32,000 nt of DNA from Crocosphaera subtropica ATCC 51142 (GTDB lineage: Bacteria; Cyanobacteriota; Cyanobacteriia; Cyanobacteriales; Microcystaceae): positions 870,001-902,000 of the forward strand of contig NC_010546.1 in the NCBI RefSeq assembly GCF_000017845.1, read 5' to 3'. Under the pieces are notes generated by a model that was not told the origin of the DNA, did no database searches, and worked only from the letters and a program-made list of their open reading frames with translations. The position numbers and the translations under genes were made by a program. Below are positions 5,789 to 18,295 of the stretch, one piece after another (the first letter of the stretch is position 1; the number at the start of each line of letters is the position of its first letter).

Positions 5789-6001
5789 CTTTTTTTTGTC
5801 GTAAGGAACTGACTTAAGTTTATTAGAGTTTTTGATCAACTAAGTTTAAGAAAAAATTATTATCATTGTAAATCCAGATTAAGCGATCGCTATCTTTGAA
5901 TAACTATGTCAAAATATAATCAAGAATAAAATGACTCAATAATTAAAAATTGATAAATAGAAACTACTATAGCTACTCTATTTGAATCCTTAACGTACTT
6001 T

Positions 6002-12483: not shown

Positions 12484-13131
12484 ATGAAAAAAGTTCTTTC
12501 TACTTTAGTTGGGGCTTCTGTATTAGCGACTGGTGGTATTAGTCTATCTGCTACTGATGTAGGTGCTTTGACTCTTGCTAATGGTACCACTACTTGTAGT
12601 ATTAGTAATCTTGATGGGGCTACTCATTGCGAAGGTGCATATGCAGGTAATGATTCTAATCAGAGTCTTGATGGTTTATTTGGTATTAACGGCTGGACAG
12701 AAGTTGTCAAAACAGAAGATGATACAAACGAGGGTAACGTATTCGATTCAATGGATGGCAGTTGGTCTAACACTGGCATGGGAGTAACATTGACTGTAAA
12801 TACTATTGGTGGGACATCAGGGACTTGGAGTGCTACTGGACTTGACTATTCTAACTACGACTATGTAGCAGTTTTAAAAGGTGGCCCAACTTTTTCTGCG
12901 TATAAGTTAGCTGATTTTACTATTGGCGGTAACTGGGATACATCAGGAATTCTAACAGGTGGCCAAAACCCTCAACCTAGTCCTGGTCTTTCTCATTTCA
13001 CACTTTATAAAACGCCTGGGACAGCCGTTCCCGAACCCCTCACCATCTTAGGTGCTGGTGCTGCCATCAGTTTCGGAACTGCGTTCAAGCGTAAGTTAGG
13101 TAAAGCTAAAAAGAGCAACGAAAAAGCATAA
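12484..13131 (+). CDS. Secreted PEP-CTERM sorting-domain protein
   Basis: 215 aa with an N-terminal signal peptide and a G/T/S/N-rich mature region. The C-terminus VPEPLTILGAGAAISFGTAFKRKLGKAKK is a PEP-CTERM anchor. Confidence 0.8.
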   Translation: MKKVLSTLVGASVLATGGISLSATDVGALTLANGTTTCSISNLDGATHCEGAYAGNDSNQSLDGLFGINGWTEVVKTEDDTNEGNVFDSMDGSWSNTGMGVTLTVNTIGGTSGTWSATGLDYSNYDYVAVLKGGPTFSAYKLADFTIGGNWDTSGILTGGQNPQPSPGLSHFTLYKTPGTAVPEPLTILGAGAAISFGTAFKRKLGKAKKSNEKA

Positions 13132-13144
13132 ATTTTACCTAAAT

Positions 13145-14628
13145 AACACGGGAGCATGAAAGCCATCGTCATTTATGCGATGGATGAAATGCGACTCGAT
13201 TGACGGGGCTTATAAAGTCCGCCCGCAGGTGCCAGACACAGCCCCTCGTTTTAACCAATTGTATCTTATTTTGCACACCTATGTAAGATATGTGTTAGGA
13301 TGTGTTCATGGCTATTTTAACCCTGACACTTAAACTTCCTTTTTATCGGTTAAACCAATGCAAATCGCAAGAGTTTGACCGATTAACTAAGTTGAACACG
13401 GGTATTGGTAATCAATTATTAGAAATCCCTAAAACAGATAGAAGAAAATACACCAGTAAAGATTTCAATCACGTTGAAATTGGATCGGGTTGGATTAATC
13501 AAACTATCCGTAATAGCTGTGCTGCAACGAAAGTCAAGAAGTTTAAATATTTGCCACTAGAGGTTAATAATCAAGGATGGCGGATTGAGAAAAAAGGTGA
13601 TATTTATTCAGTTGCTTTCTCAATTATTAGAGGGGTTAAAAAACGTATTCCTCTAGCTATTCATCAATCTAATCATACTGATGTTTTAGATAAAATCATA
13701 GCTAAATCTACCAAAAAAGGTAGTCTTAAGTTATGGAAATCTAAAAAGCGAGTGCGTAATTTGCCGTCGCACGGCAAATGTAAGACGCACTCAAGACAAG
13801 GTATTTGGTATGTTTTGTTATCGGTATCAATGGAAGTTCCTGATGCTGAACCAGTTAAAAATTGGATTGGAGTAGATAGAGGACAAAATCAAATTGCTGT
13901 TGCTAGTTTGCCTGATGGGTTTGGAAAGTTTTGGAATGGTCGTCAAATTAAACATTTAAGGCGACGTTATCAAAAACTTAGAAAACAACTCCAAAAAGCC
14001 AATAAACGCAAGGTAATTAAACGGTTAGAATCAAAAGAAAGACGAATCATAACCTATATTAACCATTGCATTTCTAAGCAGTTAGTCCAGTTTGCGTCAT
14101 ATTATGGTATGGGGTTAAGATTTGAAGATTTATCTAACATTAGACAAACTTCAAAACAATCCAAAAAAGTCAGGTCTGATGCAGGAAATAGTCGCCATGC
14201 TTGGTCATATTTCCAGTTAGAAACACTAACTCGCTATAAAGCTATTAAAAATGGTGTTCCTTTTGAATTAGTGCCAGCCCCATACACTTCTAAATCAGAT
14301 CATCGTAATGGTGTAATTGGCAAAAGAAATGGGCATTGGTTCAGAGGTTTTGACGGTTATCAATGCAATTCTGATTGGAATGCTAGTCAAAATATAGGTC
14401 AATGGTTAGGTTTTTCATGTCCTTTAGACCTTCAGAAAACTGTATTTGTAATGGATGCAGACGGTTTAAAGGATGGGGTCAATGGGAGTCCCCCCTCGCG
14501 CGTTCCCATGCGCCGTGCAACGGCGCGGGGTTGCTCGTCTTAACTAGAGTAATGTCTAATCAGGTGGATTTATCCCCTGATTAGATAACCTCTAGAATCC
14601 CTGTCAATTTATTGCAGGGAGTCTCAAC
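13145..14628 (+). mobile_element. IS200/IS605-family element carrying tnpB only (no tnpA); ends approximate
   Basis: The TnpB ORF is flanked by locally GC-rich structured DNA on both sides (13150-13250 and 14480-14628) within an otherwise AT-rich context. The boundaries are inferred, not proven. Confidence 0.45.
13308..14543 (+). CDS. tnpB: TnpB (IS605 OrfB-type) RNA-guided endonuclease-like protein
   Basis: RuvC-I is IGVDRGQN, RuvC-II is GLRFEDLSN, and RuvC-III is NSDWNASQNI (the NAAxNI-like motif). An arginine/lysine-rich helix (RRRYQKLRKQLQKANKRK) is present. The ATG at 13308 is preferred over the GTG at 13302. The last ~20 codons (GSPPSRVPMRRATARGCSS) run through a GC-rich RNA-structure region and may not reflect selection on the protein. 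Confidence 0.85.
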   Translation: MAILTLTLKLPFYRLNQCKSQEFDRLTKLNTGIGNQLLEIPKTDRRKYTSKDFNHVEIGSGWINQTIRNSCAATKVKKFKYLPLEVNNQGWRIEKKGDIYSVAFSIIRGVKKRIPLAIHQSNHTDVLDKIIAKSTKKGSLKLWKSKKRVRNLPSHGKCKTHSRQGIWYVLLSVSMEVPDAEPVKNWIGVDRGQNQIAVASLPDGFGKFWNGRQIKHLRRRYQKLRKQLQKANKRKVIKRLESKERRIITYINHCISKQLVQFASYYGMGLRFEDLSNIRQTSKQSKKVRSDAGNSRHAWSYFQLETLTRYKAIKNGVPFELVPAPYTSKSDHRNGVIGKRNGHWFRGFDGYQCNSDWNASQNIGQWLGFSCPLDLQKTVFVMDADGLKDGVNGSPPSRVPMRRATARGCSS

Positions 14629-14648
14629 TATCAGAGCAAACCTTTGAC
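14480..14648 (+). ncRNA. Putative omega-RNA (reRNA) scaffold plus flank-derived guide of the TnpB element
   Basis: The region overlaps the tnpB 3' end and contains several hairpins: GCGCCG/CGGCGC (14510-14526); CTAGAG...CTCTAG (14544-14595) enclosing the perfect 10-bp stem TCTAATCAGG/CCTGATTAGA (14555-14585); and CCCTG/CAGGG (14599-14619). It then reads GTCTCAAC (14621-14628). The position and architecture match known TnpB omega-RNAs. No expression data are available. Confidence 0.35.
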
Positions 14649-14651
14649 TGT

Positions 14652-14677
14652 TGCAGGTAAGTAATACCTGCATTTTT
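14652..14677 (+). terminator. Intrinsic terminator just beyond the TnpB element
   Basis: TGCAGGTA, loop AGTAA and TACCTGCA form a perfect 8-bp stem, followed by TTTTT. Confidence 0.55.
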
Positions 14678-16954: not shown

Positions 16955-17093
16955 GATAATTGACTCCTTAAATAATTCATAGAACTCTGCATTTTTTTTG
17001 CTAATTAAGTGAATAATCAACTGATAACAGTTAATCTGTTGTACATTTAAACAGGCTATTTAAAGTTTTAGTACAAAGGCTTAAACGCTTTCT

Positions 17094-17142
17094 CCCTGCT
17101 CCCTACTCCCCACTCCCTACTCAGAAGCTCCCTGCCTTGCCC
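17094..17142. repeat. C-tract heptamer-like array in the pstA-pstB spacer
   Basis: The sequence is CCCTGCTCCCTACTCCCCACTCCCTACTCAGAAGCTCCCTGCCTTGCCC. It abuts CCGAACTCAGGTT (17141-17153), which overlaps the pstA stop codon. Confidence 0.75.
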
Positions 17143-18220: not shown

Positions 18221-18295
18221 CCCTCTGCTCCCTATTCCCTATTCCCTACTCCCTACTCTCGTCTCCCTACTCCCTACTCCCTACTCCCTACTCCC
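18221..18295. repeat. STRR-like heptamer array (CCCTACT / CCCTATT), ten C3 tracts
   Basis: Read directly from the sequence: CCCTCTGCTCCCTATTCCCTATTCCCTACTCCCTACTCTCGTCTCCCTACTCCCTACTCCCTACTCCCTACTCCC. It lies in the pstC-pstA spacer. Confidence 0.9.

Follow-up and report, generated by a model that had tools for sequence, protein, structure and literature searches.

What does a TnpB protein without a zinc ribbon represent? The question is raised by a tnpB gene on the forward strand of a 32,000-nucleotide stretch of the Crocosphaera subtropica ATCC 51142 genome (NC_010546.1, positions 870,001 to 902,000; this whole stretch is referred to as the window, and coordinates are counted from its first letter). 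A preliminary description of the window had reported that the encoded protein keeps the D-E-D catalytic triad of the RuvC domain but has none of the four cysteines expected between RuvC-II and RuvC-III, and had proposed a zinc-finger-less lineage, a host-domesticated derivative or an early stage of decay. Here we establish the family membership of the protein, the loss of the cysteines throughout its clade, purifying selection, the ends of the surrounding element, covariation in its omega-RNA and its dispersal in multiple copies. We regard it as probable that window positions 13139–14627 form a 1.49-kb non-autonomous, tnpB-only insertion sequence (IS) of the IS200/IS605 type carrying a gene for a TnpB RNA-guided nuclease. 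The clade to which it belongs has, in all likelihood, kept the RuvC triad, a ribbon-like fold and the omega-RNA after replacing the four zinc ligands with D, N, K/R/T and D.

The tnpB open reading frame (ORF) ends at 14543 and opens at either a GTG (13302) or an ATG (13308). Because close homologues open with MAILTLTLK, the ATG is the likely start, giving a protein of 411 residues whose numbering is used throughout. This protein passes the NCBIfam model NF040570 guided_TnpB ('RNA-guided endonuclease TnpB family'; 132.5 bits against a cut-off of 100) and Pfam Cas12f1-like_TNB (PF07282; 37 bits against 26.3), is sub-threshold for Pfam OrfB_IS605 (PF01385; 23.7 against 30.5) and scores far under the cut-offs of the NCBIfam Cas12f2 model NF049972 (78 bits against 450) and of the Cas12k model. 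Among solved structures, Cas12f proteins and one TnpB (9NZP) come nearest to it in sequence, and NCBI places the proteins of its clade by name in the RNA-guided endonuclease TnpB family. The window protein is a confirmed member of the TnpB family with an intact RuvC triad of D190, E273 and D356.

Against 5.8 billion proteins we obtained 698 matches at E ≤ 1e-5, of which we aligned the best 120 clusters (60–93% identical to the window protein). All organism-named clusters among these 120 are cyanobacterial, the genera including Crocosphaera, Dapis, Lyngbya, Rivularia, Scytonema, Microcoleus, Okeania, Brasilonema, Calothrix, Hassallia and Nostoc, among others. The three catalytic residues are invariant in the 121 aligned proteins (the 120 clusters and the window protein), and the Cys-less motif is likewise present in 121 of 121. 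The gene, its triad and the former ligand positions lie as follows, each member of the triad being aligned to a catalytic residue of solved Cas12f and TnpB proteins.

13308–14543, + strand: tnpB ORF, 411 residues (hidden Markov models, alignments, AlphaFold 2 (AF2) and Foldseek)
13875–13877, + strand: RuvC-I D190, in GVDRGQN
14124–14126, + strand: RuvC-II E273, in LRFEDLS
14373–14375, + strand: RuvC-III D356, in NSDWNASQNI
14286–14375, + strand: TNB (zinc-ribbon-equivalent) stretch without zinc ligands, from the alignment to 8HR5 and 9NZP and from family conservation
14298–14300, + strand: ligand position 1, D331 (D in 121 of 121)
14307–14309, + strand: ligand position 2, N334 (N in 117 of 121, H in the others)
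14343–14345, + strand: ligand position 3, R346 (K, R or T across the 121)
14352–14354, + strand: ligand position 4, D349 (D in 118 of 121)

The register of the ligand positions was set by residue-by-residue HMMER alignment to CnCas12f1 (8HR5) and the solved TnpB 9NZP. TSKSDHRNG of the window protein aligns with TSQTCSKCG, and FRGFDGY with FICKKCGY, the longer stretch FRGFDGYQCNSD standing opposite FICKKCGYKVNAD; the register taken from RuvC-III also gives D349. In a MAFFT alignment with the sister clades described below, the equivalent of the third cysteine moves to G347 instead of R346, a non-cysteine either way. Where other proteins have a four-cysteine (C4) zinc finger between RuvC-II and RuvC-III, there is no cysteine at a ligand position anywhere in the clade. 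The Cys-less TNB stretch and the intact triad were thus described correctly in every detail in the preliminary description. A frameshift or mistranslation that hides CxxC pairs is ruled out by the same Cys-less motif in 121 of 121 intact relatives, and no alignment restores the pairs in register. Two cysteines off the ligand positions, C353 (14364–14366) and C371 (14418–14420), are invariant in the Cys-less clade (121 of 121); C371 is conserved in the C4 sister clades too, in which position 353 is mostly H or N.

We scanned GTDB species representatives for further copies, obtaining 105 stretches that encode relatives, of which 80 loci were kept. Codon alignments of 54 intact genes (313 pairs with dS of 0.1–1.5) gave a gene-wide dN/dS with a median of 0.10 and a range of 0.06–0.22, and within the TNB stretch (residues 323–356) pN/pS was 0.08. 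By this measure the former ribbon is constrained as strongly as the remaining protein.

Sister clades that bear the cysteines came to light when 1.84 billion representatives were searched with a profile and the best match outside the family then served as the query of a second search. These clades (for example clusters P0121, P0271–P0284 and P0317) are 51–62% identical to the window protein over its full length and read TSKSCCKCG...F.C..KRC...HADW, or C-VNPxC, a complete C4 ribbon; more distant relatives, at 42–45% identity, read HxxC...CxxC. The TNB stretch of the window clade is one residue shorter than that of the sister clades. On this comparison, the Cys-less state arose once, as a derived change at the root of a single clade that went together with a one-residue shortening of the stretch. 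A private loss in one pseudogene copy is ruled out: close relatives are all Cys-less, no near-identical paralogue with cysteines was found, and the nearest Cys-bearing proteins found are 51–62% identical. The DRG-type RuvC-I motif (GVDRGQN), which the preliminary description had noticed and associated with Cas12 proteins, is indeed present, but it occurs in the Cys-bearing sister TnpB clades as well and so is not linked to the loss of the cysteines.

The structure of the window protein was predicted with AF2 from 88 diverse sequences that included C4 relatives. The model has a predicted local distance difference test score (pLDDT) of 86.7, with 89–96 in the TNB stretch, and a predicted TM-score (pTM) of 0.79. 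It places three short strands at residues 339–354 and leaves the last 40 residues of the protein, encoded by DNA that also specifies the omega-RNA, disordered. In Foldseek searches the best match was AsCas12f (TM-score 0.64–0.70), followed by other Cas12f proteins and the ISFba1 TnpB; ISDra2 TnpB (8H1J) gave a TM-score of 0.54–0.60. The predicted model is consistent with a TNB that keeps a ribbon-like shape but has no further need of zinc.

The gene is part of a discrete element. In blastn comparisons with other copies, including those of Crocosphaera, nucleotide similarity spans about 13131–13135 to 14627–14633 and does not extend beyond. TTAC or CTAC immediately precedes the onset of element similarity at all loci, with unrelated sequence farther upstream. 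After the stop codon, 58 of 58 aligned copies share about 90 nucleotides up to a terminal G(T/C)TCAA, beyond which they have nothing in common; this segment is more conserved than the coding sequence (76–92% against 65–71%).

13135–13138, + strand: TTAC, presumed target site and target-adjacent motif (TAM; YTAC in the family), directly 5' of the left end
13139–13307, + strand: left end (LE), from an alignment of 57 upstream regions and blastn
13163–13183, + strand: LE subterminal hairpin CCATCG...CGATGG, a conserved block in the 57 upstream regions
14624–14627, + strand: TCAA, final bases of the right end (RE), from 58 aligned downstream regions (last five bases GTCAA or CTCAA in each)

The LE also holds a second hairpin, split by an insertion in the window copy, and a conserved palindrome with a -10-like box before the tnpB ATG. 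This palindrome (ATCTTACA-N5-6-TGTAAGAT) lies at 13266–13291 in the window, is found 20–40 nucleotides before the tnpB start at nearly all loci and is conserved and covarying (ATCCTACA/TGTAGGAT), and is followed by a TATAAT-like box; in the window its left arm is degenerate. It could be an operator or a 5'-untranslated-region hairpin that controls tnpB expression.

Related elements occur at 2 to 7 copies per genome in 14 genomes among the 80 loci, and their flanks are locus-specific except for orthologous insertions in sibling species. Two Chamaesiphon copies (L026:5817-7226 and L034:5817-7226), separated by 1.2 Mb of the same contig, share 99.2% identity over a stretch of 1,410 bp that is bounded by CTAC and TCAA, which points to recent transposition. 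The pair is the only such evidence in the 14 multi-copy genomes, other within-genome pairs being 67–93% identical. The same insertion with the same flanks is found in different GTDB species of Microcoleus (L014, L015, L020 and L062) and of Nostoc (L045/L049 and L055/L068), so that some copies have been stable since before the divergence of those species. At another locus (L050), ATTACGA is repeated four times in tandem just before the left end (about 5890–5935), multiplying TTAC.

The distance from LE to the tnpB ATG is only about 170 nucleotides in all loci. The elements are judged non-autonomous because this is too short for a tnpA gene, none is present in the window and there is no recurrent small neighbour. 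Window ORFs of at least 110 residues yielded neither a Y1 nor a serine transposase domain, in agreement with the earlier report that tnpA is absent, and no neighbouring gene recurs beside the element in the 80 loci. The window element itself has on one side a gene whose product carries a PEP-CTERM-like tail and on the other a DUF29 gene, and adjoins coaD and the pst operon.

The conserved 3' end of the element encodes a structured RNA. An RNAalifold consensus from the last 190 nucleotides of 52 copies contains 45 pairs in five helices, with compensatory changes in 33 pairs and standard pairs in 96% of cells. The covariation score is 0.49, against 0.196 for shuffled alignments (none of 500 reaches the observed score) and 0.06–0.13 when the partners are slid. 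An Rfam scan of the window returned two tRNAs only and nothing matching the omega-RNA.

14420–14627, + strand: omega-RNA scaffold, overlapping the 3' end of tnpB (RNAalifold, 52 sequences)
14420–14430/14463–14473, + strand: omega-RNA helix inside the ORF
14440–14447/14453–14460, + strand: omega-RNA helix inside the ORF
14483–14487/14622–14626, + strand: omega-RNA long-range helix
14554–14568/14573–14586, + strand: omega-RNA downstream stem-loop
14598–14607/14612–14620, + strand: last omega-RNA stem-loop, which probably doubles as the DNA hairpin of the RE
14628–14647, + strand: presumed guide, flanking host DNA CTATCAGAGCAAACCTTTGA (placed by its position right after the RE; length assumed)

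The putative guide is assigned from its position after the RE, as in characterized TnpB elements. The sequence at this position occurs once in the window, and the sequence that follows the RE differs at each independent insertion. At 14652–14672, 25 nucleotides past the RE, there is a terminator-like hairpin (TGCAGGTA...TACCTGCA) with a T run; it may end the omega-RNA transcript soon after a segment of guide length, or may be a plain host terminator.

Three small insertions, all of them G+C-rich hairpins, set the window copy apart from its relatives: one in the LE, one in the ORF and one in the omega-RNA scaffold.

13202–13247, + strand: 46-nucleotide G+C-rich LE insertion, in the window only among aligned upstream regions
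13749–13799, + strand: 51-nucleotide in-frame palindromic insertion RVRNLPSHGKCKTHSRQ, in the loop before RuvC-I (a gap in 119 of 121 proteins)
14493–14538, + strand: 46-nucleotide G+C-rich insertion in the omega-RNA scaffold (about 2 nucleotides uncertain), absent from 51 other aligned copies

The ORF insertion has the inverted repeats GAGTGCGT/ACGCACTC and ATTTGCCGT/ACGGCAAAT, is shared only with a 93% identical C. subtropica homologue (P0001) and falls in a region of low predicted confidence (pLDDT < 50 at residues 157–159). The 3' insertion replaces the C-terminal residue of TnpB with SRVPMRRATARGCSS and folds as a separate hairpin, all five conserved helices still being formable. The three insertions are not similar to one another. 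The LE insertion has no further copy in the window or the loci, and the comparison of all three with the window and the loci turned up one further copy, that of the 3' insertion in a disrupted C. watsonii element (L070; 96.6% identity over 59 nucleotides spanning the insertion). Other copies of the element carry G+C-rich hairpin insertions of 27–51 nucleotides at varied places and often in frame (L003, L010, L040, L043, L049 and L056); examples are KRCDPGDSQSPRECAPR in L003, PLDSATTYVTLREQGK in L010, WRYRATLRY shared by L040 and L056, and SEAVASLRAS shared by L043 and L049, which come from different genomes. We take these small inserts to resemble the very small mobile palindromic repeats of cyanobacteria.

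The organization of the window element is that of IS200/IS605 tnpB-only elements (IS1341-like) with TnpB and omega-RNA, of the kind characterized in ISDra2 and IS608: a split RuvC D-E-D triad, an omega-RNA over the 3' end of the ORF and the RE, subterminal hairpins at both ends, insertion 3' of TTAC and an RE that ends in TCAA. IS608 has the same two tetranucleotides, TTAC as its left target and TCAA as its right cleavage site, which would fit an IS608-like Y1 mechanism. The differences from ISDra2 are the TNB stretch without a C4 zinc finger, the lack of tnpA in the element and a protein closer in sequence to the Cas12f type, ISDra2 being absent at E ≤ 0.01 from a profile search of the PDB. 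The zinc ligands of ISDra2 TnpB are C331, C334, C351 and C354 (PMC10097598). Towards Cas12f (type V-F) the likeness is in the RuvC/TNB organization and in AsCas12f as the best solved-structure match, both by sequence (E 8e-15) and by fold; the window protein differs in having neither the first zinc-finger domain of Cas12f nor the TNB cysteines. There is no CRISPR-like array and no cas gene in the window, where the neighbours are housekeeping genes. With its C4 sister clades the window clade has in common the GVDRGQN, EDLS and ADWNASQNIG motifs and the N-terminal LTLKLPF, the two differing in that the sisters read TSKSCCKCG...C(xx or xxxx)C...HADW where the window clade has D, N, K/R/T and D.

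Loss of the zinc finger is not peculiar to this clade. Most TnpBs and some Cas12s have a C4 zinc finger of unclear function between RuvC-II and RuvC-III, which has been lost in some large TnpB branches, the RIIIr-4 clade being one without it (Altae-Tran et al. 2023, PMC10691335). The novelty implied in the preliminary description was thus overstated, and the tnpB-only Cys-less elements are new members of an already known kind of TnpB variation. The window clade resembles RIIIr-4 in its loss of the C4 zinc finger but does not belong to it, because its RuvC-III is canonical (D356 in N(A/S)DWNASQNI in 121 of 121), whereas the RuvC-III catalytic residue of RIIIr-4 is relocated; it may well be one of the other zinc-finger-less branches in SI Fig. 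S3 of PMC10691335. Beyond the statement in that paper, we found no dedicated account in the literature of zinc-finger-less TnpB, of the biology of cyanobacterial TnpB or of this cyanobacterial clade.

These observations suggest the following model. The common ancestor of the lineage would have lost all four C4 ligands of the TNB without giving up the RuvC triad, its ribbon-like fold or its omega-RNA. The omega-RNA would be transcribed through the 3' end of tnpB and the RE, with the host DNA that follows the terminal TCAA serving as the guide. By analogy with ISDra2 and IS608, a Y1 TnpA acting in trans would excise the element from just after TTAC to just after its own TCAA. The TnpB–omega-RNA complex would then cut the resealed site, in which TTAC, as the putative TAM, is joined to the guide sequence, and recombination would restore the element. 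A stronger version, in which members of the Cys-less clade are fully active RNA-guided nucleases with a metal-free TNB ribbon and the loss was perhaps favoured in oxygenic phototrophs or zinc-poor marine hosts, is tentative and we hold it to be rather unlikely.

Several points weigh against the model of a functional Cys-less lineage. Internal stops are present in 4 of 58 full-length copies, and a few others are frameshifted or disrupted, so some copies of the element are decaying. When AF2 was run on a family-only alignment of 21 sequences, pLDDT was 61 overall and about 30 (below 35) in the TNB, and the high TNB confidence of the other model may have been borrowed from zinc-finger homologues in its alignment. 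The nuclease activity ascribed to members of the clade is deduced from sequence. No tnpA is present in the window or recurs within 6 kb of the element across the 80 loci. An empty site was covered by none of the loci and did not appear in a pattern scan of metagenomes; the exact ends and the TAM are for this reason derived from copy-to-copy comparison. Finally, the activity of the window copy itself is uncertain, since it bears three small hairpin insertions, of which one lies within the omega-RNA, and any of the three could disable it.

This last point leads to the most serious alternative, namely that the lineage is functional but the window copy is an immobilized or inactive relic left by the insertions into the LE, the coding sequence and the omega-RNA/C-terminus. 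The LE and 3' insertions are missing from every other aligned full-length copy; the one element elsewhere with the 3' insertion, C. watsonii L070, is itself broken by about 2 kb of other DNA, and the LE insertion splits a conserved LE hairpin. However, the reading frame remains open, with a dN/dS of 0.08–0.11 against the closest relatives, the ORF insertion keeps the frame, falls in a loop of low predicted confidence and is also present in the intact C. subtropica homologue, and the 3' insertion forms an independent hairpin that leaves the five conserved helices formable. We therefore consider a relic possible, though not the likely state of this copy. For the lineage, which is conserved and under selection, the early decay once proposed does not hold; for the window copy, the three insertions leave it as a caveat. 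A different possibility is that the whole clade no longer cleaves double-stranded DNA and is kept for another task, for instance binding DNA under RNA guidance, processing the omega-RNA or controlling transposition. What the zinc finger does is described as unclear, and without it substrate loading could be altered (PMC10691335, PMC10097598); most copies within a genome are 8–30% diverged, so that recent activity is rare. Yet all 121 sequences, in contrast to nuclease-dead relatives such as TldR and Cas12k, keep D, E and D, the sequence at the guide position varies from copy to copy, and both the structure and the ends of the element match those of canonical homing elements; we judge a loss of cleavage improbable. 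TldR proteins are comparable in being TnpB-derived and in having no tnpA, but their RuvC is inactivated or truncated and their guide is conserved against a host promoter, whereas in the window clade the triad is invariant and the guides vary.

Domestication of the window TnpB by the host, with a fixed cellular target, could be argued from the lack of a nearby tnpA, from the housekeeping neighbourhood (coaD, the gene with the PEP-CTERM-like tail, the DUF29 gene and the pst operon) and from the conservation of some insertions across four Microcoleus species and between Nostoc species. This reading, one of the three in the preliminary description, is very improbable: genomes hold several diverged copies with non-recurrent neighbours, flanks and guides are unique to each copy, the IS ends (TTAC and TCAA) and the RuvC triad are intact, and on copy number, unique flanks, neighbours and IS ends we rule it out. 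Neither a guide shared across genomes that matches a host promoter nor a syntenic locus present as a single copy was seen. The reading of a zinc-finger-less lineage fared better, as the Cys-less state is fixed in the best 120 clusters, is under purifying selection and goes with a covarying omega-RNA.

Elsewhere in the window, two Uma2-family (putative restriction endonuclease) genes at 42–614 and 1713–2285 are 88% identical over 300 nucleotides and flank a PIN-domain gene (901–1341). An 84-nucleotide stretch encoding a PEP-CTERM-like tail (VPEPLTILGAG...FKRKLGK) occurs at 1512–1595 and 13021–13104 with 80% identity; the second occurrence forms the 3' end of the gene immediately before the IS, an ORF at 12484–13131 without a Pfam match. 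Tandem heptamers of the CTCCCTA/CTACTCC type lie at 17087–17121 and 18223–18292, in intergenic regions of the pst operon.

Apart from the comparison between Cys-less and C4 proteins, the locus is an ordinary tnpB-only IS. Its clade shows that a lineage can give up all four ligands of the zinc ribbon together and yet long retain its catalytic triad, an omega-RNA that covaries, strong purifying selection across the former ribbon and at least occasional mobility. Cys-less proteins and C4 sisters that are 51–62% identical form a clean natural pair for learning what the zinc finger contributes in TnpB and Cas12. If the Cys-less proteins are indeed active with a metal-free TNB, the clade would be a possible source of compact editors that are insensitive to redox state and zinc.

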